Of a stretch of 64,000 bases of DNA, positions 14,752 through 31,235 are shown piece by piece. Below the pieces are notes generated by a model. That model made no database searches. It was not told the DNA's origin and worked only from the letters and a program-made list of their open reading frames with translations. Position 1 is the first letter of the stretch, and each line of letters begins with the position of its first letter. The translations under genes and the position numbers were made by a program. Origin of the DNA: Gemmataceae bacterium (GTDB lineage Bacteria; Planctomycetota; Planctomycetia; Gemmatales; HRBIN36); contig PSKW01000011.1 in the NCBI GenBank assembly GCA_040289265.1, positions 14,632 through 78,631 on the forward strand, given 5' to 3'.

Positions 14752-17700
14752 ATGGGTTTGGCCCGACGAGCAAAAGAGGTAACGGCCGTGTGGCGCGTAA
14801 TCTTCGTTACTGGTCTCGCTGCGTTTCTTGTGTGTCGTGCCCCCCTGTCGCTGACCAACCGTGCCCAAGAGAGAAAGAACGAGAGGTCCCATGCGGCGAA
14901 AGCCTCCCCGCTGGAACCGCACGAAGAGGCGCAGACGTTTCGACTGCTCCCAGGTCTGCGCATCGAGCTAGTGGCCTGCGAGCCCCAGGTAATAGATCCG
15001 GTAGCCATGACTTTCGATGAAGCGGGACGGCTTTATGTCGTGGAAATGCCAAGCTATCCCAACGGTGGCATCGGCGAAGGGACTCCTGCCATCGCGGGTC
15101 GGGTCAAGGTGCTGGCCGATCGCGATGGGGACGGTTTTTTCGAAACTGCTTCCACCTTTGCCGACGATTTGCGGTTTCCTACAGGTATCACGCCTTGGCG
15201 CGACGGCGTGTTCGTAGCCAATGCCCCGGACCTGCTTTATTTGCGCGATACCGATGGCGACGGCCGGGCCGACGAGCGCCGGGTGGTGTACACCGGCTTC
15301 GGTACTTACAACATCCAACAGCTGCTCAACGCCTTGCAGTTTCATTTGGACAATTGGATCCACGGATGTAACGGTATCAACGGCGGCATCGTCAAGCCCG
15401 GCCCTGGGTTGCAGTTCGAGCCTCTACCTCTATTGGGACGGCACATCCGCTTCCGCCCGGACGATTGGTCGCGGATCGAAGCCACATCCGGCGGCGGTCA
15501 ATACGGCATGGCTTGCGATGACTGGGGCAACTGGTTCACATGCACCAATAGTCAGCATTTGCGGCACATTGTGGTGCCGGATCGCTATCTCAAGCGGCAT
15601 CCTGGATTGGCCCCCACAGGTGTGGTGCGCGACATCCCAGACGGTGTTGACGAACACATCGCCGCTGCGCGAGTGTTTCGTATCAGTCCTTTCGAAGCGT
15701 GGCGACTGGAGCGCACCGAGCGACGTGCTCGCGATCCGGACTTGAGCCGGCGTCTTTCTCCCACCGAGCTGGTTCCGGGTGGCTATATCACCTCCGCCTG
15801 CGGCGTACTGGTGTACAATGGCGGGCTCCTCGGCAGCCAGTACGAGGGAGACACCCTGGTGTGCGACCCAGCCAACAATCTCGTGCACCGAGATCGTCTG
15901 GTTGCCGATGGCGTCAGTTTTCTGGCGCGCCGCGTGGACCGCGGGTGCGAGTTCTTGGCGTCCACCGACACATGGTTTCGTCCTGTGTTCCTCTGTTTGG
16001 GTCCCGAGGGAGCCGTCTATATCGCCGATTTCTACCGCGAAGTGATCGAGACACCTTTGTCGCTACCGGAGGATATTCAAAAGCGGTACAATCTGCAAAG
16101 TCGCGGGCGCGGCCGCATCTGGCGTGTCGTGCCTGCCTCGGGTGCCCCTCGGCGGGGTGCGCCGTTGAAGCAGCGCTCGGAACTTGACTGGGTCGCCAGT
16201 TTGGAAAGCGTCAATAGCTGGGAGCGCCTGACAGCGCAGCGTTTACTGGTCGAGCGTGGCACGGTATCGCCTGAGGCGCTGGAAAAGCTGCGGCAAAAGG
16301 CGACGTCTGCCGAGCGGCCCCAGGGCCGGCTCCATGCCTTATGGACTTTGGAAGGGCTGCGCCGACTCGATCCAACTCTGATACGACGCGCGCTCTCGGA
16401 TCCCTGCCCCCGTATTCGCGAACATGCGTTGAAGTTAGCCGAGCCGCTCCTGGACAAGGACGCCGATCTGCTAGCCGCCGCACTTCGATTACAAGATGAC
16501 GAGGACCTGCGGGTCCGGTTCCAGCTGGCATTCACTCTTGGAGAGTCGAACAGTCCGCTGGCAACCCGGGGACTAGCCTATTTGGCAGCCCGCGATGGCC
16601 AGGATGGCTACTTGCAAACGGCTATCCTGAGCTCCTGTCGTGGCCGCGAGGCGCTGCTGCTCAGTCATCTGCAACACCACAAGCACCTGCCACCTGCCTT
16701 TGCCCGTGCCCTGGGCATGCTCTTGGCGCGGGGAGATGCCAGACAGACGGCGCAATCGGTCGCCGCGTGGCTCCGCGAGGATCGCTTGTTGGAGCCGCCT
16801 GTCAAAGACGTGCTCGCCGGCATTGCCGACGGTTTGGCAACTCGCGGATTGTCGCTGTCGCAACTATTGGTCCAGCATGCAGGCGCTTCGAAATGGCAGG
16901 CTTTTGTCGCAGATTGTGCTTCCCATCTCGAGAACGAGCAGCTCCCGGTGCCGCAGCGTAGCGAAAGGGCGCGTTTTTTGGCCCACATGCCTTATACGAT
17001 GGTCGAGCAGCTTGCTCCCAGGATGCTCGCGCCGAGCACACCTGCGGAGCTGCAACTGGCGTGTATCCGGGCACTGGCCTATCGGCGGGAACCGGGCGTC
17101 GCCGGCCTGCTTTTGCGATTCTGGGCCGGCTACACGCCCGCTGCCAGACAAGAAGTGATCGAGGCGCTCTTCCTGCGCAGCGATCGGCTGCCCATGTTAG
17201 TAGAAGCGCTCGAGCGGGGGCAGATTGCGGCCAGTCAGCTGCCGGCAGCCAGACGCGTACAGTTGCAGACTCTGACCGATCCTAGCTTGCGTGCACGTGC
17301 TGCTGCCGCCCTCGCCAAGCTGGTCGAGGCGGATCGCCAGCGCGTGGTAAAACAGTACGAGCAAGCCCTACACGCGTCCGGCGATATCCAGCGCGGTCGT
17401 GCGGTGTTCCAGAAGCATTGCCAAACGTGCCACCGTTTGGCGGGGGAAGGGAAAGACGTAGGGCCGGACCTGGCCGCTGCCCTCAGGACGAAACTGCCCG
17501 AAACCCTACTCTCGGACCTCTTCGACCCCAGTCACGAAGTAGACCCGCGCTATGTCAACTATGTGGTGGTGACCCGTGACGGGCGTGTGCTCAGCGGCAT
17601 CATCGCCCAGGACTCGGCCAATAGCATCCTACTGCGTCGCGCCGAACAGGCCGAGGACCAGGTGCTGCGTCAGGACATCGAAGAAATACAATCTACGGCC

Positions 17701-17811
17701 AAGTCGCTCATGCCGGAGGGACTGGAGAAAGAGTTGACCGTGCGCGATGTCGCCGACCTGGCGGCTTATTTGTTCAGCGTGGTCGGTCGGCGCTGGCCGC
17801 AAAGACCTTGA
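14752..17811 (+). CDS. PVC-type membrane-bound dehydrogenase-like protein (beta-propeller, HEAT repeats, c-type heme domain)
   Basis: ELVACEPQVIDPVAMTFDEAGRLYV, DTDGDGRAD, FRPV/GPEGAVYIADFYR, HEAT repeats, CQTCH, GPDL, SLMPEGLE. Confidence 0.92.
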   Translation: MGLARRAKEVTAVWRVIFVTGLAAFLVCRAPLSLTNRAQERKNERSHAAKASPLEPHEEAQTFRLLPGLRIELVACEPQVIDPVAMTFDEAGRLYVVEMPSYPNGGIGEGTPAIAGRVKVLADRDGDGFFETASTFADDLRFPTGITPWRDGVFVANAPDLLYLRDTDGDGRADERRVVYTGFGTYNIQQLLNALQFHLDNWIHGCNGINGGIVKPGPGLQFEPLPLLGRHIRFRPDDWSRIEATSGGGQYGMACDDWGNWFTCTNSQHLRHIVVPDRYLKRHPGLAPTGVVRDIPDGVDEHIAAARVFRISPFEAWRLERTERRARDPDLSRRLSPTELVPGGYITSACGVLVYNGGLLGSQYEGDTLVCDPANNLVHRDRLVADGVSFLARRVDRGCEFLASTDTWFRPVFLCLGPEGAVYIADFYREVIETPLSLPEDIQKRYNLQSRGRGRIWRVVPASGAPRRGAPLKQRSELDWVASLESVNSWERLTAQRLLVERGTVSPEALEKLRQKATSAERPQGRLHALWTLEGLRRLDPTLIRRALSDPCPRIREHALKLAEPLLDKDADLLAAALRLQDDEDLRVRFQLAFTLGESNSPLATRGLAYLAARDGQDGYLQTAILSSCRGREALLLSHLQHHKHLPPAFARALGMLLARGDARQTAQSVAAWLREDRLLEPPVKDVLAGIADGLATRGLSLSQLLVQHAGASKWQAFVADCASHLENEQLPVPQRSERARFLAHMPYTMVEQLAPRMLAPSTPAELQLACIRALAYRREPGVAGLLLRFWAGYTPAARQEVIEALFLRSDRLPMLVEALERGQIAASQLPAARRVQLQTLTDPSLRARAAAALAKLVEADRQRVVKQYEQALHASGDIQRGRAVFQKHCQTCHRLAGEGKDVGPDLAAALRTKLPETLLSDLFDPSHEVDPRYVNYVVVTRDGRVLSGIIAQDSANSILLRRAEQAEDQVLRQDIEEIQSTAKSLMPEGLEKELTVRDVADLAAYLFSVVGRRWPQRP

Positions 17812-17832
17812 ACAAAGCCCGAGGACCGAGCC

Positions 17833-19119
17833 ATGGCCATCCACCTGGCCGTCTTTCGCGTGGACCTAACGCCTCCCGTTGGACATCCTTTGTGCGGAGG
17901 ATGGATCCGACGGGCGGTTGCCTTTTCCGAACCACTGTATGCTCTGGGAGCGGTCCTATTGGGCGACGAGCCTCCCGTGGTGCTGTGCGCCGTGGATTGG
18001 GTGGGCATTTGCAACGATGCGCACAAGCACTGGTGCCAGGCGCTGGCCCACGCCGCACACAGTACGCCCGAACGCATCGCCCTGCATACGGTGCACCAGC
18101 ACAATGCTCCTTTCGTGGATGTGACTGCTCAGCGCGAGATCGAAAAACACAAAGACTTGCCTGCCCTCATGGATATTGCGTGGTACGAGCAGGCGGTCGA
18201 GCGCACAGCCGCCGCGCTGCGCGAAGCGCTGAAAACGACTCAACGTATTACCCACTATGCATTCGGCCGGGCACGTGTCGAGCGGGTCGCTTCGAACAGA
18301 CGCGTCGTAGGTGCCGACGGCAAGATCCGCTACTGGCGCGCCAGTTCGTGCCGCGATCCGGCTGCACGGGCCGAGCCGGAAGGAACCATAGATCCCTGGC
18401 TCGCCTCGATCACCTTTTGGAGCCAAGACACTCCTGCACTCACCGTGCACTATTATGCGACCCATCCGATGAGCTATTACCGCGACGGGATCGTCACCAG
18501 CGATTTTCCGGGAATAGCCCGCGACGCCCTCGCCAAGCAAACCGGTCACCCGCATATATACTTCACCGGCTGTGCCGGCAACGTAGCCGCCGGCAAATAC
18601 AACGATGGCGACCGTGCCAACCGCTTCTTGCTCGCGCAGCGCATGTTCCAAGCTATGGAAAAAGCTTGGCGCGCCGAGCGCACAGAACTCAAAAGCTTTT
18701 CGTGGAAAACCTTACCCATGCCTTTGCCCCCGCGGGAGGATGCCGACGAGCATGACTTGCGCGCCATCATCGCCGATGCCAAGCGGCCGGTTTCGGTCCG
18801 CAATTATACGGCGATCAAACTATCCTACCGCTTGCGGGCATTGCAACAGCCGCTGTCGGCGAGCCTCCTGCGCCTGGATCCGGGCGCTGGCATTTTGCAT
18901 TTGCCCGGCGAGTGCTTCGTCGAGTACCAACTCTATGCCCAGGAGGTAGCTCGAGGAAAATCCCTGGCAGTGGCAGCCTATGGCGACGATGGGCCTTGGT
19001 ATATTCCCCTAGAAAGGTCCTTCGCCGAAGGTGGCTACGAGCCTGGCGTGGCTTTTGCTTCGCAGAAAAGCGAAACCATCGTGCGCGACACGATCCGCCG
19101 ATTGTTAACGAGCCGATAA
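17833..19119 (+). CDS. Neutral/alkaline ceramidase-like metallohydrolase
   Basis: VDLTPPVG, HTVHQHNAP, YATHP, SDFPG, FTGCAGN, LPGECFVEY, GGYE. Confidence 0.75.
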   Translation: MAIHLAVFRVDLTPPVGHPLCGGWIRRAVAFSEPLYALGAVLLGDEPPVVLCAVDWVGICNDAHKHWCQALAHAAHSTPERIALHTVHQHNAPFVDVTAQREIEKHKDLPALMDIAWYEQAVERTAAALREALKTTQRITHYAFGRARVERVASNRRVVGADGKIRYWRASSCRDPAARAEPEGTIDPWLASITFWSQDTPALTVHYYATHPMSYYRDGIVTSDFPGIARDALAKQTGHPHIYFTGCAGNVAAGKYNDGDRANRFLLAQRMFQAMEKAWRAERTELKSFSWKTLPMPLPPREDADEHDLRAIIADAKRPVSVRNYTAIKLSYRLRALQQPLSASLLRLDPGAGILHLPGECFVEYQLYAQEVARGKSLAVAAYGDDGPWYIPLERSFAEGGYEPGVAFASQKSETIVRDTIRRLLTSR

Positions 19120-19245
19120 ACCCATTGCAGAGGGGTCATGTCGCGTTTTCGGTGCTGACTGTCCCGTATCCTGACGGGACAGCGCTCTGGATTCTCGAAG
19201 GACAGCGCATACGCTCGCCGCCGGCGTGTCCATCACGTTCGGTGG

Positions 19246-20232
19246 CTAGGTATTGACGAGCGGACGCGACTTTTCGCCTTGTCTATCTAGACGGTCCAAA
19301 TGTGCTCCCCACTGTCTGGCCAAGGCTACGGTCTTCTCTTTGAGTGCATCTGCCTCGGCTGGGGACATAGGCTCGAAGTGACGAGCCCATTCGACGTTTT
19401 GCTCCAGCTCTGCGATAGTTCCCATGCCTAGAACCGCAAGGGCCACGCCAGGAACGCTCAAGGCATAGCGGAGGGAAGCCTGACGCAGGTCCGGGGGCAT
19501 CTTGCAAGGGTGCACCCCGATACTGCCCCCGTAAACCTTCATGGCCACCAGACCGATCTGTTTGCTACGCGCAATCGGCCAGACAACGTGCTCGAAGGCG
19601 TAGGTGTGCCGATCCACGATGTTGACGGTGTTCATCATGACGTCTATGTCCCGCCGCTGGATGACGGCGGCAAATTTCTCGGGCCGGTTGTGGCCCGTGA
19701 TGCCGACAAAGCGCGCCAATCCTTCTTTTTTGGCCTTTTCTAGCATAGCGATGGGACCGTCGTCAGCCGTGAGACGATCGAGGTCGTAGACGGCGTGGCC
19801 GATGGAGTGGGTATAGACCAGGTCCAATTGTTCGATACCCAATTCTTTCAGGTTGCGGTGCAGCAGCGCCAGGATTTTAGAGCCGTCGGGTTCGAGGCAT
19901 TTGGAGGCGATAAAGACTTCTCGGCGTCTTTCCTTCAAGATCGGTTTGAGGTACGCCTGGGCTCGTCCATAGCCAGCGAATGCGGGGGCGGTGTCAATGT
20001 AAGTAACGCCCAGGTCAATAGCGCGGTGGATGAGCGCATGGGCCTCTTTTTCGCTCTGCAAGTTGCCGACGGCGACGGTGCCCAGGCCGATGATCGGTAC
20101 TACCACGCCGGTTTTGCCGAGCACCCGTTTGGGGATGCCGTCAGTGGGCGCGGCCAGAGCTTTAGGCAAGGCGCAAGCAGTTGCCAGCAAGCCCCCAGTG
20201 GTCTGCAAGAACTCCCGCCGCGTCGGAATCAT
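19246..20232 (-). CDS. Tat-exported aldo/keto reductase
   Basis: Tat signal TRREFL; LGKTG, IGLGT, YIDTA, IASK, DLVYTH, AMKV. Confidence 0.9.
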   Translation of the reverse strand: MIPTRREFLQTTGGLLATACALPKALAAPTDGIPKRVLGKTGVVVPIIGLGTVAVGNLQSEKEAHALIHRAIDLGVTYIDTAPAFAGYGRAQAYLKPILKERRREVFIASKCLEPDGSKILALLHRNLKELGIEQLDLVYTHSIGHAVYDLDRLTADDGPIAMLEKAKKEGLARFVGITGHNRPEKFAAVIQRRDIDVMMNTVNIVDRHTYAFEHVVWPIARSKQIGLVAMKVYGGSIGVHPCKMPPDLRQASLRYALSVPGVALAVLGMGTIAELEQNVEWARHFEPMSPAEADALKEKTVALARQWGAHLDRLDRQGEKSRPLVNT

Positions 20233-20259
20233 GACTTCCTACTATTCGGGCTATTCTCC

Positions 20260-22044
20260 TCACGATACACCGGCGTTGGGCTTTTCATCCGCATAATAAT
20301 AATCCACCCAGCCGATCATCATTTCTTCCCAGGTTTGCTCGCCCCAAAAGACCGTTTTCGTCGGATCCGGATTGTTGGGGTTGTTCGGTGAGTTGTCGAA
20401 ATGCGCCGTGCACTCGATGCGCGTACCGGCTGGCATAAAAAGAGGCTTTTCCAGACGATACTGGGTCTGCCAACCGAAATCGTAGCGTGGAACGTACAAC
20501 ACGATTTCCGCACGCCCGTCGGGATAAACGACCTTGTATTCGAAGCTTTTACCGCGCAAATGCATATGCGGCATGAAGCTCAGCAAATAGGCGTCCCGCG
20601 TGAAGGTGGAACTGGACTGGACCCGGAAATGGTCGTGGCCAGGCGGGATAGCGAAGCGCCGATTCAAAATGCTGCGCGTTCGCACGATATGCCGAGGCAG
20701 CTCCTTGGCAAAAATCAATCCCACTGAGGAGCGATCCTTTTGTGGTGTGCCATTGGGGGTGTAGTGCATTTGAAAGATCAAAGTCGAGCCTTTGGGGATA
20801 CGCTTAGCCATGCCGTCGGGGAAGATGGCGGGCAAATCGCCTGGGGCATAGCCCACGAGCAGATTGTTGCCGATCAAATCTTCGCTACGTTGTAAAGGCT
20901 GGCCCGGGGAGCGGATATAGACGATGATATGGTGCACGACCAATTTATTGCCTGGCCGAGCCTCGGCGAACTGGACCCATTTGTCTTCGGTAAAGTGGGT
21001 GGGAACTGCAAAATACAGGTACGGTACTCCGTTGGGCGCCTCTGCGGGGATTTCGACTTCTTGGGGCAATTCGAAGACCACGTCCGGCTTACCGATACGC
21101 CACCCGGAGTGGTCGGGAAATTCTCTGGGCGGCGGCAGATCGCGCTCGTCTCCCTTGGGACATCCCTGATCTATCCAAGCCAGCAACGTAGCCCGATCCT
21201 GTTCGGGCATGCTGCGATCGTTGGCGAATTTGCCGTATCGGGGGTCGGCATGCCAAGGAGGCATACGTCGTTCTGCCACGACTTCGCGGATAGTCTCTGC
21301 CCAGGCGCGGGTCTTTTCATACGTCAATAACGAAAACGGGCCGATGTGCCCTGGCCGGTGACATTCTTGGCAATGCTTTTGGATGATGCGGGACACTTCG
21401 CGGGTATAAGTCACAGACCCGGCGACTAATTCTGGCTTGCTGCGGCCGATGAAGCATCCGACCGCCGGCACATGACGTTCGCTTACTTCTTTGCCTGCCA
21501 AAGCCTTTTCCAAGGCGTCTTTCAAGTATTGCCGTTCCGGCTTGACCTTCTGATACCCTATGCCGTACTGATCGTCTATGCGTCCCCGATACACCACTTG
21601 GCGGTTTCGATCCAAAACGAAAACTTCCGGTACCCGCTTGGCCTGGAACAGGTCGGCAACCTTTTGATTTTTGTCTTTGAGCATCGGAAAAGGCACGTTG
21701 TGGCACTTCACGTGCTCGATGATTTTGCCTATGTCGTCTTGCTCGTTGCTATTGATACCGACGAATTGCACGCCCCGCGGACCGTATTCCCTGCTGAGCT
21801 GGCACAGGCGGGGCATATAGAGATTGACCAAAGGGCATTCCGTTCCCAGAAAGGCCACTACCACGACTGGACGATCGCGGAAGTCGCTCGCGGACACCAG
21901 CCGGCCATGCACGTCGGGCAACTGAAAGTCCAGCGGTGCTGTCCTGGATTCCGGTGCAGAAGCAGGCTTTTGGGAAGCGGCGAGGACACAGACCAATAGG
22001 CCGACACAGATTGGGGAAACCCATCGCCAACGCCATCCGGTCAT
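20260..22044 (-). CDS. Exported redoxin / cytochrome c / copper type II (PHM/DBH-like) monooxygenase fusion, copy A
   Basis: Signal peptide; AhpC/TSA-like TECP...GRIDD...GC; CQECH plus MPPW; Cu-ligand motifs VVHH, QMHY, PHMH, EEMM. Confidence 0.8.
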   Translation of the reverse strand: MTGWRWRWVSPICVGLLVCVLAASQKPASAPESRTAPLDFQLPDVHGRLVSASDFRDRPVVVVAFLGTECPLVNLYMPRLCQLSREYGPRGVQFVGINSNEQDDIGKIIEHVKCHNVPFPMLKDKNQKVADLFQAKRVPEVFVLDRNRQVVYRGRIDDQYGIGYQKVKPERQYLKDALEKALAGKEVSERHVPAVGCFIGRSKPELVAGSVTYTREVSRIIQKHCQECHRPGHIGPFSLLTYEKTRAWAETIREVVAERRMPPWHADPRYGKFANDRSMPEQDRATLLAWIDQGCPKGDERDLPPPREFPDHSGWRIGKPDVVFELPQEVEIPAEAPNGVPYLYFAVPTHFTEDKWVQFAEARPGNKLVVHHIIVYIRSPGQPLQRSEDLIGNNLLVGYAPGDLPAIFPDGMAKRIPKGSTLIFQMHYTPNGTPQKDRSSVGLIFAKELPRHIVRTRSILNRRFAIPPGHDHFRVQSSSTFTRDAYLLSFMPHMHLRGKSFEYKVVYPDGRAEIVLYVPRYDFGWQTQYRLEKPLFMPAGTRIECTAHFDNSPNNPNNPDPTKTVFWGEQTWEEMMIGWVDYYYADEKPNAGVS

Positions 22045-22148
22045 CGTCGAGCTCCTTCCTCTGGGCTGCCCTGGGCTGCTATACCCTTGCGCGACACACC
22101 GCGACGCAGGCGGTGCGCGTGCAACACGACGGCGCGCCGGTTCTGCTC

Positions 22149-23084
22149 TCACGAGCCCGGGCCAGGCGTTATACTTAGCTTCAAAATACGGTCCCCCCGC
22201 TTGATGGACACTTCTACCGTTTCGCCCGGCGCGATTTTTTCCAAAGCGCGAAAACAATCCTCTATAGAATCCGTCCACCGTCCATCCAGTGTAAGCAACC
22301 GATCCTGTGCCTGCAAGCCGGCACGTGCCGCCGGCGTGTCTGGGTAGACATGAACGATGGTCACCCCGGCACTATCGTCATCTTTTGCCTTTTCGACCCG
22401 ACACCCCCAAAGCGCCCCCGGGACCAGCACCCGTACCTCTTGTTCGCTTCGGGGAGCCACCATACGCCCCATGAGCTCCGTCATCACATCCGGCGGACGA
22501 TAATCCACGGATACGAACTGCAGCTGCTTAGCCCGATAGTCTACGGTCGTACGGAACCTTGCGAAAAAGGGAAAGCCCACGATTCCATCTATCGGTCCTA
22601 CTGCTTGGGCCAATGCTTTGAGCAAGGGATGGTCCATGACCACCACCGGCACGTCTTCCACACGGGCGTCGCCTAGCTCCAGAGTCTTGACAGTGGTCTG
22701 ACCGCGCATGCCGAAAAAGGCGGGCCTTTTAAGAGCCTCGGCGCTGAAAAGTTCCGCTTCCTTGGCGATCCGATTCCCCAGAACGACGAGCGGCGCGCCG
22801 GTGTCGAAGACCACACGGAACGGCCCCTTGCCGTTGACGCGTATCTGCACTGCGAAATGCATCGTGGGCAACAATTCGAAAGGCACAGTAACCGGCCGTG
22901 GCGTTTTTCGAACCTGCTCGAGCGTCTTCGCACGAGGAGCACTCTGGGCCGGTGCCTGAACCAGGACCTGCCCGTCAGCTATCGGTACTGGAGCGCGCCA
23001 TGGAGCGTGCCAGCCCGGCGCATCAGGCACCAGAGCCACCATCCAACACGACCACGCAATCCAGAGCGCCTGTGATACGAACAT
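22149..23084 (-). CDS. Exported retropepsin-like aspartyl protease with C-terminal PDZ domain, copy B
   Basis: VNGKGPFRVVFDTGA, GIVGFPFF, PDZ TPAARAGLQAQD; hydrophobic N-terminus. Confidence 0.85.
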   Translation of the reverse strand: MFVSQALWIAWSCWMVALVPDAPGWHAPWRAPVPIADGQVLVQAPAQSAPRAKTLEQVRKTPRPVTVPFELLPTMHFAVQIRVNGKGPFRVVFDTGAPLVVLGNRIAKEAELFSAEALKRPAFFGMRGQTTVKTLELGDARVEDVPVVVMDHPLLKALAQAVGPIDGIVGFPFFARFRTTVDYRAKQLQFVSVDYRPPDVMTELMGRMVAPRSEQEVRVLVPGALWGCRVEKAKDDDSAGVTIVHVYPDTPAARAGLQAQDRLLTLDGRWTDSIEDCFRALEKIAPGETVEVSIKRGDRILKLSITPGPGS

Positions 23085-23115
23085 CTTCTCCTCCGATGCC
23101 TCGGCGGTGATGCCG

Positions 23116-24090
23116 CTAGAAAGCAATTTCCTGAGGGATCTTAAGGGTGCGCTCGCCGGCAGCCGAGCGTACCGTGATTTCCAGGTCGCCTCCTCGGTAG
23201 TGTCGGTACGCCTGAGCAAGGTCGCGAGCGTGACGCACCGGCCTGCCGGCAATTGCGGTAACCGAGTCGCCGACTTTCACCCCGGCCCGATAGGCAGGAC
23301 TGTCGAGTACGACTTTGCGGACTAGCAAGCCCTCTTCGGTCTCTTGGTACTCGATACCCAAGAAAGGCCGCTGCAAAAATTGTGTTTCCGGGCGCCGACC
23401 GCCGAGCAAAGTAGAAAAAAGAGTGGCCATGCCACTCATCATGGACACCTCGGGGGGGACTTTGCCTCCGAGCTGTGCCAGTCCTTTAGGGGCAGGCGGC
23501 TTCCACGAGAGCGGTGTCCAATGCAGATGCCGCTGGGTGAAGTCGTACTCGATGCGAAAGCGTGCCAGCACGGTATAGCCCAACATCCCGTGATAGCGCA
23601 CGCCTGCCAAATTCATACGGTTCATACCAACGAGCTGGAACGGATCCTCGACCAGTACGCGCTCCTTGTTCAAGAGGATGCCCCCCTCGATTTCCAAGGT
23701 ATTGCACACAGCCCATCCCCTGGCGTCCGGCTGCAAACCGGCTTTCCCTGCTGCTTCCGTACCCACAAAGACCGCAGGCGCGCCGGTATCCAAGATGAAA
23801 TGGAAAGGCCCTTTGCCGTTGATTTTGGCCCGGACCATAACGTGTTTGACCGGAGTGAGCTCATAGGGAACCCGATAGCGCTGTGTTGCATCGGTGCCTC
23901 GCTCGGCCTGGCCGTGCCGCTCGACCGAGGAAAGCGCAACGTATTGGCTGGCCTCATTCGCACCGGCCGAGATGGACCTGGGCGCAGTGACCACCGGCCC
24001 CGGGCGGGCCGATACTGTCGAGCCATTGTAAAACCAGCCGATATTCCACAGACTGGCCAGAAAACCTACGGTCACAAGTTGCGCTAACAT
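23116..24090 (-). CDS. Exported retropepsin-like aspartyl protease with C-terminal PDZ domain, copy B'
   Basis: INGKGPFHFILDTGA, GMLGYTVL, PDZ FLGI...SPAYRAGVKVGD. Confidence 0.85.
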   Translation of the reverse strand: MLAQLVTVGFLASLWNIGWFYNGSTVSARPGPVVTAPRSISAGANEASQYVALSSVERHGQAERGTDATQRYRVPYELTPVKHVMVRAKINGKGPFHFILDTGAPAVFVGTEAAGKAGLQPDARGWAVCNTLEIEGGILLNKERVLVEDPFQLVGMNRMNLAGVRYHGMLGYTVLARFRIEYDFTQRHLHWTPLSWKPPAPKGLAQLGGKVPPEVSMMSGMATLFSTLLGGRRPETQFLQRPFLGIEYQETEEGLLVRKVVLDSPAYRAGVKVGDSVTAIAGRPVRHARDLAQAYRHYRGGDLEITVRSAAGERTLKIPQEIAF

Positions 24091-24158
24091 GTTGCCTGCG
24101 CTCCAGCAAAAAGCAATGCATCGAGAAAACAGCAAGTCGAGCCTGTCAACTCGCTTGT

Positions 24159-26138
24159 TCAATTTTTCGGTTTCATAGGCTGTTTGTCGCTCTGCCCTGT
24201 TTCACCCCTGGCTTGGCGCGGGGGCGCTGGGCCAAAAAGTACCGGCCGGAATCCTTTTTGCGCCCCGACACGGTCGGAAGTCACGCCTAAAAAGACAAAG
24301 CACATTTCATCGGTGGTCTGCTGGCCCAGCCGCACCGGTTTGGGCGGGCTGTTCGGATTGAGCGGATTGTTCTCGGAGTTATCGTACACCGCTTCGAGAT
24401 CGAAGCGCGTACCGGTCGGGATATGCATGGGTTCGTTGAGGAAATACATTTCTTGCCAGAGGTAATCCCATCGAGGGATGTTGATCAATTCCTTCTGGCT
24501 GCCGTCGGGAAAAGTCACCGTACAGCGAATGGACTTGCCCAAAAGATGCATGTGGGGAAAAACAGTGTACAAGGTCAGGTCTTCGTGGGCGTAAGCACGT
24601 CCGCGTACCACAAAGTGGTCGTTATTGGCCGGGATGGCCAACAAAAGTCCCGCCAGGACTGCAGAGAGGTAACGATGCGTGACCGGGCCGTCGGCAAAAT
24701 ACAAACCGATGCGGGTACGGTCGCGCTCTAATTTGCCCGTGCGGTGGTAATGGATCTGCACGACGATATCGGCACCTTTGGGAAGCAAGTATCCCACGCC
24801 TGGGGGCATGGGTCGAATGAGCAACCCCGGCGCCCATCCGCCCAGCTCGCCGTCCAGCGGGATAAAGCCTACGCCCATGCGCGTCGAATATCCCGGTCCA
24901 CGATCTACCTCGTCGGAGCTTTTGGGGCGCTTGCGTTCGGCCTCTTCCAGGCGGCGGGCGACACCACGCGTATCTAGCAAATGGACCGTGTGATGGACCA
25001 CGCGCGGATTGCCTGGGCGCACTTCGACCGCTCGCACGAACTTATCCTCGGGCAAATGAGTAGGAAAGACGAAGCATCGAAACAAGTCGCGTCCCGTGGG
25101 GCCGATAACCATTTCTTCTGGCATTTCCAGAACCAGATCGGGTTCACCTAATTGCCAGCCAGAGGTGAATCGAGGAGCTGGCGGGGCCTGCGCCGGATCG
25201 CCGGCGGGCATCCCTGCATCTACCCAGCGCGCCAAAAGATCCAGCTCCCGCGGGCTCAAACTCCGTTCATTGACATACATGCCCCGTTGTACTGGCTTCC
25301 AGGGGGGCATTTGTCCGTTTTGCGTGAACTCTTTGATGTCCTTGCCCCAGCGTCTGGCCTGTTCGTAGGTGACCAGCGAAAAAGGCGCCACTTCGCCTGG
25401 ACGATGGCACGACTGACACTTGTTCTGCAAAATCGGCACGATATCGCGGTAAAAGGTCACAGGCCCCTGTCGCGCAGGTGTGTCCTCTTTGCCGTCCGCG
25501 GGCTTCTCGATGGTGCATCCATAGGCTACGGTCGAGGCCACCGATACCGGCTTGCCAGCCAATACTTCTTCCAACGCTACGCGTAGGTCTTCACGGCTAA
25601 TCTGAGGTCTCGTGCGCAAACGCGCCCAATAACCGTCGTCAATGCGGCCGCGATACCGTAGCACACCCTCTCCGTCCAAAACAAAAGCTTCCGGGGTCAC
25701 GCGCGCGTCCAGTGCTCGCACGGCGGCGTAGGCTTCATCTACCAGCAGGGGCACGCGCGTGTCGTAGGCCCGCAAGTGCGCCGTCAGCGATTTGGCCTCG
25801 ACTGGCCCAGGGTGGACCAAGAAGAAAGCCACGCCTTCGGCAGCAAAGCGTCGCGCTAAATCGCCGAGGACCGGCAAATAAGCGTTGGCCATCGGGCATT
25901 CCGGCGAAAAGAAGACAATGACGGTGGCGCGTTTTCCCTTGTGCGCGCTCAAGGATCGAACATCGCCGTCGAGCGTCTTGAGACGCACATCGGCAATTCG
26001 TTCTCCCAGACGGGAAACGACAGGCGTCTCTTTCTTTTCGGCTCCGCCCCAGGTGTATGGCACATAGGCAACCAGCGCAATCATGCAAAGTGCCAAAAAA
26101 ATACACGCCCTAACAGTGTATCGCTCAAGCGCGGACAT
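24159..26138 (-). CDS. Exported redoxin / cytochrome c / copper type II (PHM/DBH-like) monooxygenase fusion, copy A'
   Basis: Signal/TM segment; PECP...GRIDD...YGC; CQSCH plus MPPW; VVHH, QIHYH, PHMH, DEMC. Confidence 0.8.
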   Translation of the reverse strand: MSALERYTVRACIFLALCMIALVAYVPYTWGGAEKKETPVVSRLGERIADVRLKTLDGDVRSLSAHKGKRATVIVFFSPECPMANAYLPVLGDLARRFAAEGVAFFLVHPGPVEAKSLTAHLRAYDTRVPLLVDEAYAAVRALDARVTPEAFVLDGEGVLRYRGRIDDGYWARLRTRPQISREDLRVALEEVLAGKPVSVASTVAYGCTIEKPADGKEDTPARQGPVTFYRDIVPILQNKCQSCHRPGEVAPFSLVTYEQARRWGKDIKEFTQNGQMPPWKPVQRGMYVNERSLSPRELDLLARWVDAGMPAGDPAQAPPAPRFTSGWQLGEPDLVLEMPEEMVIGPTGRDLFRCFVFPTHLPEDKFVRAVEVRPGNPRVVHHTVHLLDTRGVARRLEEAERKRPKSSDEVDRGPGYSTRMGVGFIPLDGELGGWAPGLLIRPMPPGVGYLLPKGADIVVQIHYHRTGKLERDRTRIGLYFADGPVTHRYLSAVLAGLLLAIPANNDHFVVRGRAYAHEDLTLYTVFPHMHLLGKSIRCTVTFPDGSQKELINIPRWDYLWQEMYFLNEPMHIPTGTRFDLEAVYDNSENNPLNPNSPPKPVRLGQQTTDEMCFVFLGVTSDRVGAQKGFRPVLFGPAPPRQARGETGQSDKQPMKPKN

Positions 26139-26334
26139 ACAGACCTCCTTGGCGTCTTCGCTCTCGCCGAACAGATTGAGCACATTCCACCGTCTCGAAA
26201 CCCATTACCCGTCCCCTGTACGATCGGTTTCGCTGCCGACCGTGGGCGGCAGGGACGATTGTCACAGCGCTTGCGGGTCCGGCCAGAGCTGTCTGTGCCT
26301 ACGCCTCCGTCCCTACCTGCATACATTCAGTGAT

Positions 26335-27870
26335 TTACGGACTGTCAGCACTGGCGGCGCTGTCTAAAAGCGCGCGGAATTTTTCAGCCGCCGCGCGTGG
26401 GTCCTCGGACTGACAAATGGCATGGCCAACAGCAACCCGGCGGATGCCTGTGGCCAAGACCAGCGGCAAATTATCCAGGCTGATGCCGCCGATGGCGAAA
26501 ACAGGTAGGGCCGTCCTCTGGGCCGCCTGGCGCACGTAATCCAGCCCTGCCAATTCGGTAAAATCTTTGGTACGACTGGGAAAGACCGGTCCGGCGCCGA
26601 CATAGTCAGCTTTGGCGATAATTGCCTGGTGGAGCTGTTCGATGTTGTGCGTACTTACGCCTACGATCGCCTGCGGACCGAGGATGCGTCTGACTTCGGC
26701 AGCCGCCAAATCTTCCTGGCCCACATGGACCCCGTCGGCCTCTACCAACGCAGCGATGTCGGCGCGGTCGTTGACGATCAATGGTACCTTTTCCCGATAA
26801 GTCCACCGACGCACCTGGCGCGCGCGTGCGATCAAGTCACGATCAGCGAGCGATTTTTCTCGCAGCTGGACCATTTGCACGCCCCCGGCGATGGCCTCGC
26901 GCACGGTAAATTCCAGCGACGCAGCACAGGCTTGGCCGCTCACTAGCAGATACAAGCGGACATGCTCGAGGCGTGCACGCGCCTGACGCATACTGGCCAG
27001 TGCACCCTCGAGCGTATAGGCCCGATAACGCATTTTTTGAAACCAGGAGGCCAGCTCGCCACCGAGGGCCACTTGCGCGTATTCTTCCAAACTGCGCAAG
27101 GCTTCCTGAAGCCGACGGAAATTGGCGACGATAACATCCTCGGTCCGTTGACGCCCGCTGGCTGCTTCGATATGGATCGCAGGACCTATGTCGCCGGGGG
27201 TATCGCGACAGCGGATCGTCTCCGGCGCAGTGCGCTCCTGGAGAACATGCGTCAATTCGTGACGCATCTGCTTGAGCTCACCGGTCAAATAAGGGTCGTC
27301 GAGCCCGAAGCGGCAATAGTCCTCCAAGACGCGTAGCGCCTCGCGAGCGCGATTGGCATTGGCATCCAGGATGCGATGTACTTCCCATTCCTCGCGGGTA
27401 GGGTGCAAGTCCAAAGGCGTATCCATGACCAGTTCGGTCGCCTCCGCCCGCAGCTCTTTCTCCACATCTTCCGAGAAAAAACCGACCCGCCCTAGCAGAT
27501 CTCTCAAGTAAGCGTCGCGCTCCAGAAGAGCGGCCAAGAGATGGCCTGTGCTAACGATCCGCTCACCGGACCACTCGGCAGCCAGACGCCGGGCTACATG
27601 GAGTGTAGTTTCCACGTCTGGAGCTAAAGGGATTCGGGCGGGTGCCTGCAGCGGTTCTAGATCCCGATCGCCTGCTTGCAGGAGCGTCCGCAATTTGGCC
27701 GGGGTTATGCCTCGCTGACTCAAGAGCGTCGCCACGCGTCCTTCTTCTTCCTGGACCAAAGCCAACAGGACGTGAACATGCTCGACCTGAGCAGCGCCCA
27801 TACAGGAGGCCCAAGCCGCCGCAACTTCCAACGCTCGCGCTACTCCAGCAGTGTGTTCCGGTAAAGTCAT
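26335..27870 (-). CDS. thiE: Thiamine-phosphate synthase with an N-terminal Clp-repeat domain and a ThiD2-like helical domain
   Basis: QLREK, IVNDRAD, GVHVGQED, GVSTH, GPVFPSRTK, FAIGGI; middle RILDANANRAREALRVLED; N-terminal HVLLAL and GHLLAALL Clp repeats. Confidence 0.9.
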   Translation of the reverse strand: MTLPEHTAGVARALEVAAAWASCMGAAQVEHVHVLLALVQEEEGRVATLLSQRGITPAKLRTLLQAGDRDLEPLQAPARIPLAPDVETTLHVARRLAAEWSGERIVSTGHLLAALLERDAYLRDLLGRVGFFSEDVEKELRAEATELVMDTPLDLHPTREEWEVHRILDANANRAREALRVLEDYCRFGLDDPYLTGELKQMRHELTHVLQERTAPETIRCRDTPGDIGPAIHIEAASGRQRTEDVIVANFRRLQEALRSLEEYAQVALGGELASWFQKMRYRAYTLEGALASMRQARARLEHVRLYLLVSGQACAASLEFTVREAIAGGVQMVQLREKSLADRDLIARARQVRRWTYREKVPLIVNDRADIAALVEADGVHVGQEDLAAAEVRRILGPQAIVGVSTHNIEQLHQAIIAKADYVGAGPVFPSRTKDFTELAGLDYVRQAAQRTALPVFAIGGISLDNLPLVLATGIRRVAVGHAICQSEDPRAAAEKFRALLDSAASADSP

Positions 27871-27982
27871 GGCGCTTTTCTCAGTCCGGCGATCGTGGAC
27901 CCAAAGACCAGCGGAAGCGCTGCGGCGGCACGTGTGCAGCGACGGCCAACTTCCGTCGAGGCCCGATCCGCTCCGCTACAGG

Positions 27983-28978
27983 TCACTCTCCTTTGGGCTG
28001 CCTCATCATCAGGTCCAGGACCGCTTCCTGAGGCGCTTTGCCTTGGTACAGGACGCGGTACACCTCTGTGGCAATTGGCAAATCCAAGCCCAATCGCTGG
28101 GCCTTCTCATAAACACTCCGCACCGTGTAGACACCTTCGGCGACCTGCTGCATACCGCCTAACACGCTGACGAGCGGCATACCTCGACCGATCAATTCAC
28201 CCACGCGGCGATTGCGTCCATGCCTGCTGATACACGTCGTAATGAGATCGCCGATGCCGGCGAGACCAAAAAAGGTCTCTCTACAGGCGCCGAAAGCCGT
28301 GCCGAAACGAATCAATTCCGGTATAGCGCGAGTCAGCAACGCAGCTTTGGCGTTGTCCCCGAAGCCGAGACCGTCGCTGATGCCCGCAGCGATGGCGATG
28401 ACATTTTTCAGAGCCGCCGCCAACTCGACGCCGATGGTATCCGTTTGCGTGTAAACGCGCAGCCGATCCGACATGAACAGTGTTTGCACGGCGCGTGCCT
28501 GGTCCTGATCGGAGGCAGCCACCACCATACTGGTCGGAAGTCCGCGGCTAAGTTCCTCGGCGTGGCTGGGGCCGGAAAAAACCGCCACCGGACGCGGCCC
28601 AAGCTCTTCACATATGATCTGCGAAGGTCGCGCGAAAGTGGCGATCTCCAACCCCTTGGCGACGCTTACCGCTGGAGTGGGGCAGCTGGCGAGCGGCCTG
28701 AGCTGTGCTAACGTCTGCCGCAAATAGACCGTGGGAATAGCTACTACCCACAGGTCTGTCTCCGTTATCGGTTCCGTTTCACAGGTCAGCCGGACTTCGT
28801 CGGGTATCTGCACCCCGGGCAAATAGCGAACATTTTCACGCCTGGCGACCAAAGTATCGTGATATTCGCGCGAACGGCTCCACAGCCAGACTTGCTCCAC
28901 CCGGCGAGCCAGAAGCACAGCTAGGGCAGTCCCCATGCCACCATCGCCCAGGATTGCCACTCGCCGAAACGGTAACAT
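27983..28978 (-). CDS. gpsA: NAD(P)H-dependent glycerol-3-phosphate dehydrogenase
   Basis: GDGGMGTALA, SGPSHAEE, ALKNVIAIAAG, GLAGIGDLITTC, RNRRVG, AEGV. Confidence 0.95.
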   Translation of the reverse strand: MLPFRRVAILGDGGMGTALAVLLARRVEQVWLWSRSREYHDTLVARRENVRYLPGVQIPDEVRLTCETEPITETDLWVVAIPTVYLRQTLAQLRPLASCPTPAVSVAKGLEIATFARPSQIICEELGPRPVAVFSGPSHAEELSRGLPTSMVVAASDQDQARAVQTLFMSDRLRVYTQTDTIGVELAAALKNVIAIAAGISDGLGFGDNAKAALLTRAIPELIRFGTAFGACRETFFGLAGIGDLITTCISRHGRNRRVGELIGRGMPLVSVLGGMQQVAEGVYTVRSVYEKAQRLGLDLPIATEVYRVLYQGKAPQEAVLDLMMRQPKGE

Positions 28979-29293
28979 CTCTGTTTCCCCAGCTGGGCAC
29001 AAGGACCCATAACGCATGCAAACTGGCGAAACCAATTTGGCATCTCGGTTCATTCTATTGGCTGGCCAATTGGCATAAATCAAGCCTAAAGCAAAGTGTT
29101 CAGAAAACGCCTGGGCTCACTTGCCTTAAGGGCTGGGTTTTGCAAATAAGCCTCGTCAATGATCCTTACTCCAGACGGTTTGTTTGGGCCGTATGGCGCC
29201 CCTCAGCCGATAATGATAAATGCCGAGCGAAGCTTAACGACTCGGGAACGAACTCAGGCCACCATCGGCAAAATGGATAAATCGGGGGGCAGG

Positions 29294-29515
29294 ATGGTGA
29301 AGCCGTACCTACGGCTGTACGATCCGGACAACGAGCACGAAAGCAGGCAGGAACCTACAGTTCGCGTGCGTCTCGGTGATCTATTTCCACTGCTTGTGCA
29401 GGCCCATCGGGGTAACTATTTATGGCTCAACGACTTCCAAGACGACGAAATCTACGTTACGCCCGATTTGTATGAGGTGTTGTGCGCCTTCCAATGCTAC
29501 CGCCCATCGGCATAA
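29294..29515 (+). CDS. Small acidic hypothetical protein (73 aa)
   Basis: G-rich SD before the ATG; globular-looking sequence ending WLNDFQDDEIYVTPDLYEVL. Confidence 0.65.
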   Translation: MVKPYLRLYDPDNEHESRQEPTVRVRLGDLFPLLVQAHRGNYLWLNDFQDDEIYVTPDLYEVLCAFQCYRPSA

Positions 29516-29622
29516 GAGCGCATCGCCAGGCGTGATTCAGTCAACGACGTTGATCGTCGAGTCACTGACAAGATCTCTGGACCGCAAAACTACCATAGCT
29601 TGAGTCAATCTCCCGGCCCGAG

Positions 29623-30495
29623 TCAATCTTCCGGCCACTGGATAGAAGGGGCTTGTGTCGAGCCGGGCATTTTGGTCTCAGGCCGTCCCAGGTTTTGGAT
29701 AATGTCAACTTGGCCACGCAACTCGGCATCTAGCAAACGGATACGTTGTTCCAGCTCGCGCACTTTGGCTTTTAGAGTGCCCACCTGCACGGTCAGGTCA
29801 TCCTTGGAAGGCGGGCGTGGTACCGCTGGATAGCCTAATTGCCGTTGTATAGCCGCGAAAAAGTAAAGTGGATCTCGTCCGTGACTGGCCTTTGCGATCT
29901 TCCCTTCTTTTTCGCCGAAGACAATCATCACTCGTTCGCTTTCGCTTGGGTGTTCTTTGGCATACAACTCGGAATAGAGGTAAATCAGATCGGAGAACTC
30001 GATTTCTCCGATGCTGCGCCGCACCGTTTCCATAAACTGCCGCCAGGCTTCGTCAAAAAAACCGTCACGCTGGATGCGCAAAAGTCCCTCGTCATATCCT
30101 AACCGGTGACGGCACAATACTTCGAACTCGAACAGAAACAATCCTGCAGGCGTGGGGCTTTCCGAGCGATAACGGGCCTCTGCCTCCAAAATGGCCAGCG
30201 CCATATCGAAGCTGAACCGCAATCCCTCTTCCTCTGATTTGCGCACCACGAAAGCCTGGAAAGGGGTGAAATAATGACTCAGTCTTTCGAAGCCGGGAGC
30301 CAGCACCCCGCTATGCTTTATCTCTGTCGCCAGGTACTGGATGGCATAGGGCAACTTGGTAGTCGTGAGGATCTCTTCGTGGATGTGAGTGAGGATCTCC
30401 TGGGCAGGAAATTGGTCACGTAATCTCTCGCGCAAGACGCGAAAAAAGTAAGCCTGCTCGACATACTCCTCGCGCTCCAGGACAGGCGCCAGCAT
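29623..30495 (-). CDS. Conserved hypothetical all-alpha protein, divergent from rpmB
   Basis: GGGAG SD; LEREEYVEQAYFFR, TTKLPYAI, HYFTPFQ, RDPLYFFAAIQRQLGYP; C-terminal coiled coil. Confidence 0.75.
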   Translation of the reverse strand: MLAPVLEREEYVEQAYFFRVLRERLRDQFPAQEILTHIHEEILTTTKLPYAIQYLATEIKHSGVLAPGFERLSHYFTPFQAFVVRKSEEEGLRFSFDMALAILEAEARYRSESPTPAGLFLFEFEVLCRHRLGYDEGLLRIQRDGFFDEAWRQFMETVRRSIGEIEFSDLIYLYSELYAKEHPSESERVMIVFGEKEGKIAKASHGRDPLYFFAAIQRQLGYPAVPRPPSKDDLTVQVGTLKAKVRELEQRIRLLDAELRGQVDIIQNLGRPETKMPGSTQAPSIQWPED

Positions 30496-30598
30496 TGTGA
30501 CAGCTCCCTCGTAAAGTAGACCCAAGCCGGCTTGTAGGGGCCCTTGCTCCTCGTATATTAAGATTCTTAGGCAGAATACAGACGAAAGGGGCCGAGCG

Positions 30599-30859
30599 AT
30601 GGGAATGCATTGTGCTATTTGTGGGAAGACGCCGGTGTTCGGCAATAAGATCGTCCGCCGGGGAAAAGCCAAATACCTGGGCGGCGTGGGTCGCAAAGTG
30701 ACCGGCATCAGCCGGCGCAAGTTCAAACCCAACCTGCAGCGGGTGCAGGTGGTTATAGACGGGGCCGTGCGCAGAGTGCGTGTTTGTACCCAGTGCTTGC
30801 GCAGCGGCAAGGTACAGCATCCGCCTAAACGCAAGGCTTTTGCGCTCGACAAGGTTTAG
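30599..30859 (+). CDS. rpmB: 50S ribosomal protein L28 (zinc-binding form)
   Basis: CAICGK, RRKFKPNLQ, VCTQCLRSG. Confidence 0.97.
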   Translation: MGMHCAICGKTPVFGNKIVRRGKAKYLGGVGRKVTGISRRKFKPNLQRVQVVIDGAVRRVRVCTQCLRSGKVQHPPKRKAFALDKV

Positions 30860-30947
30860 ATTCGAGTGACGCTGTCCCGATCACTTGGAGCACGCGACGG
30901 GCTTTTCAAGGCTTAGCGGCGCCGATCGTGTTCGCTGGGGGACGACC

Positions 30948-31235
30948 ATGGCCTTGACCGAAGACCAGGTGCGGTGGGTTGCTCACTTGGCCCGACTCGA
31001 GTTTGCGCCAGAGGAAATCGAACTCTTTACGGCTCAGCTCAGCCAAATCGTGGATTACGTCAACCAGCTCCAGAAACTAGACACGGAAAAAGTCGAGCCG
31101 CTGGCGCACTGTTTGCCCATCAGCAACGTTTTTCGCCCCGACGAGGTGCAGCCGAGCTTGACTGTAGACGAAGCCCTGGCTAACGCGCCCGATCGTCGTG
31201 GAGCTTATTATGGCGTGCCCGCTGTATTGGACTGA
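30948..31235 (+). CDS. gatC: Asp/Glu-tRNA amidotransferase subunit C
   Basis: VAHLARL, LDTEKVEP, NVFRPD, LANAP, VPAVL. Confidence 0.96.
   Translation: MALTEDQVRWVAHLARLEFAPEEIELFTAQLSQIVDYVNQLQKLDTEKVEPLAHCLPISNVFRPDEVQPSLTVDEALANAPDRRGAYYGVPAVLD

Follow-up and report, generated by a model that had tools for sequence, protein, structure and literature searches.

Five genes in a 64,000-nucleotide stretch of the Gemmataceae bacterium contig PSKW01000011.1 (hereafter the window, whose own numbering is used throughout) may encode a single envelope pathway, in which periplasmic copper hydroxylases fed with electrons by a haem are loosely coupled to a heterodimeric PDZ protease specific to one bacterial order, Gemmatales. 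We assign this explanation a probability of about 50%. The genes, A'-B'-B-A-AKR in sequence, form a co-oriented run on the minus strand at positions 19246-26138. Two of them, A' and A, encode paralogous fusions of a redoxin domain, a putative c-type haem domain and a copper monooxygenase (34% identity, E 2e-104), B' and B are paralogous DTG proteases carrying a PDZ domain (26% identity, E 1e-22), and AKR is an aldo/keto reductase. The spacing is short throughout: 68 nt between A' and B', 31 nt between B' and B, 104 nt between B and A, and 27 nt between A and AKR. An initial annotation made from the sequence alone had described the same gene order with its narrow gaps and the same two pairs of paralogues, and this part of it was upheld by the identities above, by Pfam matches and by conserved metal ligands. 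The gene starts chosen here agree with the database proteins P0001, P0121 and P0391 (100% identity and coverage), and a Shine-Dalgarno sequence, AAGGAGG, is located 6 nt before the ATG of A'. In the 3.66 Mb genome A and A' are the sole monooxygenase genes of their kind, B and B' the sole protease genes of theirs, and all of them are clustered together. As judged from the sequence, the five genes constitute a real envelope gene cluster that is probably co-transcribed. The signals in the DNA itself added little: no Rfam match was found at E ≤ 0.1 in 17000-31000, the promoter scan was uninformative (4 promoter-like sites against 3.4 expected), and so was the terminator scan, as terminator-like matches fell within coding sequence.

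The monooxygenase genes encode proteins of 659 aa (A', 24159-26138, predicted to be membrane-anchored or exported) and 594 aa (A, 20260-22044, predicted to be exported); the export signals of the cluster were deduced from N-terminal hydrophobic helices in the models and, for AKR, from a twin-arginine motif. In A, the redoxin domain spans approximately 21445-21942 (ECP 21832-21840, VGCFI 21448-21462), the haem domain approximately 21145-21417 (CQECH 21358-21372, MPPW 21253-21264), and the PHM/DBH-like two-copper monooxygenase 20263-21135 (VVHH 20929-20940, MHY 20761-20769, PHMH 20560-20571, EEMM 20317-20328). In A' the same series reads ECP 25893-25901, YGCTI 25509-25523, CQSCH 25404-25418 and MPPW 25299-25310, followed by the copper-domain motifs VVHH 24990-25001, IHY 24747-24755, PHMH 24546-24557 and DEMC 24300-24311, all on the minus strand. 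The AhpC-TSA model of Pfam (cut-off 26) matched both proteins, A at 1.5e-19 (70.6 bits) and A' at 9.3e-13 (48.6 bits), and Cu2_monoox_C (PF03712, cut-off 23) matched A' at 3.2e-6 (27.1 bits). In an alignment of 55 full-length relatives, the CuH ligands H371, H372 and H427 of A were invariant, as were the CuM ligands H493, H495 and M575 together with E574, and the haem motif residues C225, C228 and H229 together with M261, P262 and W264. The redoxin domain does not contain a CxxC motif; it has a single cysteine (TECP or PECP) and a distal, conserved "GC" cysteine, and these residues (C70 and C197 in A numbering) are each at least 90% conserved in the same alignment.

A search of the PDB with the sequence of A reached only the redoxin part; PHM (E 1.8e-6) and human DBH, 4zel (E 3.1e-6), came up only with a profile of the copper-domain family. 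The profile pairs the CuH residues, in the N-terminal sandwich, with VHHM and QVHY of PHM (H107/H108 and H172) and the CuM residues, in the C-terminal one, with HTH and DEMC (H242/H244 and M314), with a chain offset of 44. The same ligand numbers occur in the titles of mutant PDB entries among the Foldseek matches, and they are also given in the available text of PMC12164859. The AlphaFold2 model of A (predicted local distance difference test, pLDDT, 91.4; pTM 0.86) matched PHM entries in Foldseek (E ~1e-14, ~295 aligned columns) as well as DBH (E 4.8e-14, 304 columns), and its redoxin domain matched 3u5r, 2cvb and 2ywi at E ~1e-15. Judged by conservation, profile and model, the PHM-like fold and both copper sites are real, and the fold suggested by the initial annotation is in agreement with this result.

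The likeness to PHM (the core of rat PAM; 1phm, 1opm, 1sdw and 3mll) comprises the two-domain beta-sandwich and the aligned CuH His-His...His and CuM His-x-His...Met ligands, at a sequence identity between A and PHM of 15-18%. Unlike PHM, A and A' are bacterial, exported and fused to c-type haem and redoxin domains, and their reductant is probably the haem, whereas that of PHM is ascorbate. DBH has the common copper core too, scores as well as PHM and likewise carries the core within a multi-domain chain; in contrast to DBH, A and A' possess neither a DOMON nor a dimerisation domain, and their N-terminal partners are the redoxin and haem c domains. The redoxin domain resembles the TTHA0593-type proteins (2cvb/2ywo), 2ywi and SMc02350 (3u5r), with 30-34% identity, E of 1e-20 to 1e-26, a profile E of ~1e-31, a Foldseek TM score of 0.8, and a shared C-terminal extension with the conserved "GC" cysteine. 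The first cysteine of CxxC is absent from A, A' and 3u5r, whereas it is present in 2cvb and 2ywi (C-N-H-C); unlike these solved thioredoxin-like proteins, the redoxin of A and A' is fused to haem and copper domains.

Since in-frame TGA codons were flagged in some A' orthologues, selenocysteine at the redoxin cysteine was considered and rejected: no stop was present at that cysteine in the 7 of 9 genes with an intact frame. In those seven genes all stops but one lay outside the gene (upstream of the start, at the end or beyond it), the remaining one being a TGA within the copper domain; of the other two genes, one had no detectable frame and one (in genome G011) was riddled with stops. The TGA within the copper domain is found in the A' orthologue at L214 (G138:C251), in the conserved NPxNP-DP stretch at no cysteine position, and it could be a sequencing error or the mark of a pseudogene.

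The family to which A belongs is very large. Of 8,000 candidates scored, 7,998 matched A, and the names under which members are deposited include "peroxiredoxin" and "peroxiredoxin/mono/diheme cytochrome c family protein"; the copper domain alone yielded 10,644 representative clusters at E ≤ 1e-3. In 118 of 150 representatives a CxxCH motif precedes the copper domain by ~85 residues; most of the other 32 are short pieces. There are two main layouts, haem and copper (~430 aa) and redoxin, haem and copper (~600 aa). On several Acidobacteriota contigs (L023, L031-L034, L037 and L040) tandem arrays of 3-5 haem and copper genes without redoxin were observed. Eukaryotic enzymes of the PHM/DBH type require ascorbate and produce peptide hormones and catecholamines. 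To the best of our knowledge, work on PHM, DBH and related enzymes has been confined to eukaryotes, and our literature search found no study on a bacterial member of the haem-fused family. In the accessible part of a paper from 2022, PHM is termed widespread in eukaryotes (PMC8812541).

The proteases are encoded between the two monooxygenases. Both are single-lobe, retropepsin-like aspartic proteases. B' (23116-24090, 324 aa) has a hydrophobic anchor at its N-terminus and a PDZ domain at its C-terminus; B (22149-23084, 311 aa) has a signal peptide and a PDZ domain of the HtrA type. Their active-site motifs, DTGAP in both cases, are located at 23776-23790 and 22791-22805 of the minus strand, respectively. 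Asp_protease_2 was matched above the Pfam cut-off by B' (5.8e-7) and B (2.3e-10), and PDZ_2 (cut-off 27) at 6e-10, 39.7 bits, and 9.9e-13, 48.6 bits, respectively. D-T-G-A-P is invariant in the alignments of B and of B' (41 sequences each; residues D101-T102-G103 in B'), and DTG[AS] is kept in 118 of 120 relatives of B and in all 120 relatives of B', among the relatives listed. The model of B (pLDDT 83.4) matched the retropepsin APRc, 5c9f (E 3.7e-6, TM score 0.65), and 9iy9 (E 8.1e-6) in Foldseek, while its PDZ domain matched DegS/HtrA at E ~1e-7, including DegS-peptide complexes.

A single copy of B was found in 127 of the 151 genomes of the order. Among those of good quality the count was 108 of 127, and 55 of the 61 genera were represented. 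At E ≤ 1e-25, a search of 150 genomes from elsewhere in the phylum, covering 129 genera, found none. The pair is a single-copy, near-universal trait of this order only. Of the 121 loci in which 1 kb or more can be read upstream of B, 120 have B' immediately before B and co-oriented with it. The sole exception, L193 (G091:C30), has no B' beside B despite an upstream flank of 4.5 kb. When the complex of B (residues 60-200) with B' (68-202) was predicted, the interface score ipSAE was 0.84 in three runs, whereas the best of 3 controls gave 0.00; contacts agreed between runs to at least 98%, and the pLDDT of the partners was at least 87. In the calibration of the predictor, 116 of 157 solved complexes and 2 of 215 mismatched pairs attained this mark; the counts are approximate here, as the alignments were user-supplied. 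The predicted interface comprises both DTG loops, with T95 against T102, and the C-terminal strands. Because this prediction coincides with the strict tandem, B' and B are read as a single protease, and a conserved tandem of two paralogues diverged to 26% identity argues for a heterodimer rather than a homodimer. According to the models, the two chains most likely pair into a single heterodimeric aspartic protease, to which each contributes a DTG and a PDZ domain, and the initial annotation, which listed them as two proteases, most likely overlooked that they are halves of one enzyme. A candidate Rosetta-stone fusion of B' and B, P0395 (560 aa), was discarded as a frameshift or gene-call artefact, for its junction is garbled and it contains a second, internal signal peptide.

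No study on a tandem retropepsin-PDZ pair of this kind was found in the literature search. As described in the available portions of the respective reports, the bacterial retropepsins APRc of Rickettsia conorii (5c9f; PMC4140852), Rlo of Pseudomonas aeruginosa (PMC12239564) and RimB (PMC11957791) likewise have a single DTG lobe that needs pairing. Unlike these enzymes, as far as those portions describe them, B and B' each carry a PDZ domain and are encoded as a conserved tandem of diverged paralogues. The same parts, retropepsin lobes and PDZ, are present in 9iy9, a putative endopeptidase of Bacteroides fragilis named "aspartyl protease family protein"; however, 9iy9 has two lobes and one PDZ domain in one chain, whereas B' and B have the lobes on two genes and a PDZ domain on each.

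To relate the protease pair to the monooxygenases, the surroundings of all 127 B genes were compared, and 103 loci were readable on both sides. A monooxygenase flanks B'-B in 44 of these 103: an A'-type gene upstream only in 25, the arrangement found in the window (A' upstream, A downstream) in 12, and a monooxygenase downstream only in 7. The leucyl-tRNA synthetase gene leuS lies downstream in 5 loci, and neither a monooxygenase nor leuS stands beside the pair in 54. With partly readable loci included, a monooxygenase neighbour was seen in 48 of 127 loci and in 28 of the 55 genera that carry B (genera were mapped by hand). The linkage of protease and monooxygenase genes, which the initial annotation had named as a test of its proposal, recurs within the order. 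In the 73 loci with wide flanks, tblastn found a monooxygenase neighbour in 32, while by a rough clustering of open reading frames (ORFs) every other neighbour family occurred in at most 15; the next families were the PQQ_2 propeller (15), DUF7133-HEAT (13) and NIPSNAP (12), mostly within single genera. In about four out of ten genomes the two machines adjoin, in a neighbourhood whose gene order is otherwise scrambled within the order, and we read this as a loose functional tie between them.

From the above, a hypothesis regarding the function of the cluster may be put forward. A and A' would be exported three-domain oxidoreductases that combine a thioredoxin fold (with one active-site cysteine and a distal partner cysteine), haem c and a PHM/DBH-type core, and the methionine of MPPW is the likely sixth ligand of the haem. 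The fused haem would draw single electrons from the periplasmic respiratory pool and hand them to CuH, taking the place of the ascorbate used by the animal enzymes; it is the constancy of the haem fusion that leads us to infer that haem, and not ascorbate, supplies CuH. CuM would then activate O2 and hydroxylate a C-H bond of the substrate, which is not demonstrably a peptidyl-glycine. The redoxin domain may serve as a thiol reductant or as a peroxide scavenger. The B'/B protease would select its substrates by peptide tags, either C-terminal or internal, to which its PDZ domains bind. Oxidation and proteolysis would act on the same protein or peptide targets, with neither machine depending on the other.

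A number of observations weigh against this explanation, some of them concerning the parts and others the linkage. In the case of the monooxygenases, the Cu2_monoox_C match of A (1.8e-4, 21.5 bits) is slightly below the cut-off of 23, the N-domain model PF01082 was matched by neither A nor A' at E ≤ 0.01, and the Cytochrome_CBB3/Haem_bd matches that accompany CxxCH in both proteins are below gathering. In the case of the protease, a resemblance to retropepsin homodimers of known structure may account for the score of the predicted complex, which cannot separate a heterodimer from a homodimer. As for the linkage, a monooxygenase neighbour is absent from 59 of the 103 readable loci. Orthologues of A' (E ≤ 1e-110) were detected in 115 of the 151 genomes, and in many cases they lie on a different contig from B or at a distance of megabases. 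In genera g5 and g2, leuS follows the protease pair. The adjacency is also labile, having changed at least 20 times on a tree of B, which was a quick maximum-likelihood tree of 107 rows (genomes) from which 20 loci with unreadable flanks were omitted. In genus g12, finally, all five genomes tested have 2-3 monooxygenase genes, while the matches to the B profile cover the PDZ part only and the retropepsin lobe is missing. A co-loss of both gene sets in this genus had been considered and was rejected, as the monooxygenases are present and only the protease lobe is gone. On the data from g12, the monooxygenases do not need the protease. The reverse case, in which the protease occurs and every monooxygenase is absent, was looked for in five genomes of genera g8, g17 and g18 and was not encountered; all five have B and no A' at the threshold, yet each contains 1-2 monooxygenases.

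The strongest competing explanation is that there is no functional link at all, and that two independent housekeeping functions of the envelope are adjacent in a slowly eroding ancestral gene order. We regard this as a serious, though less probable, alternative. The majority of loci without a monooxygenase neighbour, the at least 20 changes of adjacency among 107 genomes, the 5 genomes with leuS beside the pair and the independence of the monooxygenases in g12 all speak in its favour, as does the occurrence of the monooxygenase family far outside the order, in other phyla where the protease was not found. Furthermore, the cluster in the window is itself surrounded by genes of core metabolism (thiE-thiD2, gpsA, gatA/gatB, cobA-hemD and lpxB). 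On the other hand, mere erosion does not readily account for a block that persists in 28 genera at just 40-50% protein identity while other neighbours vary, or for a monooxygenase neighbour at 32 of the 73 wide-flank loci when no other family exceeds 15. Nor is it readily reconciled with the common strand, the short gaps and the presence of a monooxygenase on both sides of the pair. Shuffled labels required 35.3 ± 2.7 changes (minimum 28 in 200 shuffles), well above the 20 observed, although relatedness alone lowers the observed number.

The favoured explanation of loosely coupled hydroxylases and protease could also be carried considerably further. In such a form, the B'/B retropepsin would be an obligate heterodimer and, together with the haem-wired PHM-like monooxygenases, would make up a periplasmic pathway that runs without ascorbate and in which envelope proteins or peptides are both hydroxylated and cut. 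B'/B would then be a living intermediate between the homodimeric proteases of the retroviral type and the single-chain, bilobed pepsins, and the pathway a bacterial counterpart, possibly a forerunner, of peptide processing in the eukaryotic secretory pathway. We consider this extended proposal speculative and rather improbable as a whole.

The initial annotation went in a different direction and proposed a pathway of cleavage and amidation, in which the PDZ proteases would expose a C-terminal glycine and A and A' would alpha-hydroxylate it, leading to C-terminal amides as in eukaryotic prohormone processing. Its premises of fold and adjacency stood: PHM is the closest solved relative by profile and fold, HtrA-type PDZ domains bind C-termini (as in the DegS-peptide complexes found by Foldseek), and the protease and monooxygenase genes do recur side by side. 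The amidation itself is not supported by the sequences. In PHM, Asn316 and Tyr318 contact the peptide. The position of Asn316 is occupied by Ile in A and Phe in A', and that of Tyr318 by Trp and Phe, respectively, so that only the aromatic character is retained. Arg240 of PHM is described in the consulted part of PMC12164859 as forming a salt bridge with the C-terminal carboxylate of the peptidyl-Gly substrate. According to the profile alignment, this position is Met in A, Phe in A' and hydrophobic in the family consensus. With the Arg240 clamp and Asn316 replaced, A and A' lack the feature on which the action of PHM on peptidyl-glycine depends. Unlike PHM, moreover, A and A' have no PAL domain and no PAL-like gene: a Pfam scan detected no PAL/NHL lyase in the cluster or its flanks, and NHL repeats occur in the genome only on contigs C15 and C4. 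The hydroxyglycine intermediate can decompose without a lyase at high pH, which speaks for the proposal. Candidates for a precursor peptide were also missing from the gaps, in accordance with what had been noted at first. The gap between B and A holds one confined ORF of at least 20 aa (a 28-aa ORF starting with GTG) and is overlapped by two longer plus-strand ORFs, and the interval between thiE and A', inspected by eye, contains very short ORFs and a 26-aa ORF overlapping the start of A', none of them precursor-like. If we add that DBH, an enzyme acting on amines, scores equally well, that most members of the monooxygenase family have no protease partner, and that the adjacency was lost or gained on at least 20 occasions within the order, the amidation pathway appears quite unlikely.

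HtrA-type PDZ domains bind hydrophobic tags. An equally doubtful proposal, that the protease serves the monooxygenases by freeing them from the N-terminal anchor, separating their domains or removing oxygen-damaged copies, would fit the hydrophobic, anchor-like N-terminal helices of both A' and B', the position of the protease pair between the two monooxygenase genes and, equally well, the adjacency in 44 of 103 loci, but it is at odds with the 2-3 monooxygenases kept without the protease in all five g12 genomes, with a family that thrives in other phyla without the protease, and with the C-termini of A and A' (…NAGVS and …MKPKN), which are unlike such tags.

The last gene of the cluster, AKR (19246-20232, minus strand, 328 aa), encodes an aldo/keto reductase with a twin-arginine export signal (RREFL, 20206-20220). 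The Aldo_ket_red match (E 1e-28, 100.7 bits, Pfam cut-off 24) and the visible TRREFL motif bear out its first description as a Tat-exported aldo/keto reductase; no NCBIfam equivalog attained its cut-off. It follows A only in the window and in three other genomes seen (L002; L003/L117, which are one genome; L128), and it is a lineage-limited addition to the cluster.

Several features of the surroundings are recorded here in their own right. Upstream of A', at 26335-27870 on the minus strand, an unusual 511-aa chain joins a Clp_N repeat, ThiD2 and thiamine-phosphate synthase (TMP-TENI), and its orthologue is located directly upstream of B'-B in genome G001 (L083/L100). Convergent to the cluster on the plus strand are genes for a 1019-aa DUF7133-HEAT-cytochrome c protein (14752-17811) and a 428-aa protein without a Pfam match (17833-19119). 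The same pair follows A in genome G013 (L086), where the larger orthologue has a weak NHL match and the 428-aa orthologue a weak ceramidase match. In G001, at 14150-17315 of L083, a gene for a PQQ_2/BamB-like beta-propeller ends 10 nt ahead of an A-like monooxygenase gene, ~6 kb downstream of a B'-B-leuS block; the propeller family occurs near B'-B in 15 of the 73 wide-flank loci. Farther away in the window, two adjacent giant plus-strand ORFs of 1706 and 1498 aa (38947-44067 and 44086-48582) matched no Pfam family at E ≤ 1e-5.

The window is one of many that contain a member of the monooxygenase family, and its distinctive value lies in the recurrent, facultative association with the protease. 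With the tandem of B' and B, the existence of a natural heterodimeric retropepsin can be put to the test, which bears on the origin of the bilobed aspartic proteases. A very large bacterial family, with its 10,644 representative clusters, retains the whole two-copper site together with its own fused haem. Such a family would offer bioinorganic chemistry a self-contained, ascorbate-free model of the chemistry of PHM and DBH, and it prompts one to ask which substrates are hydroxylated in the bacterial envelope.

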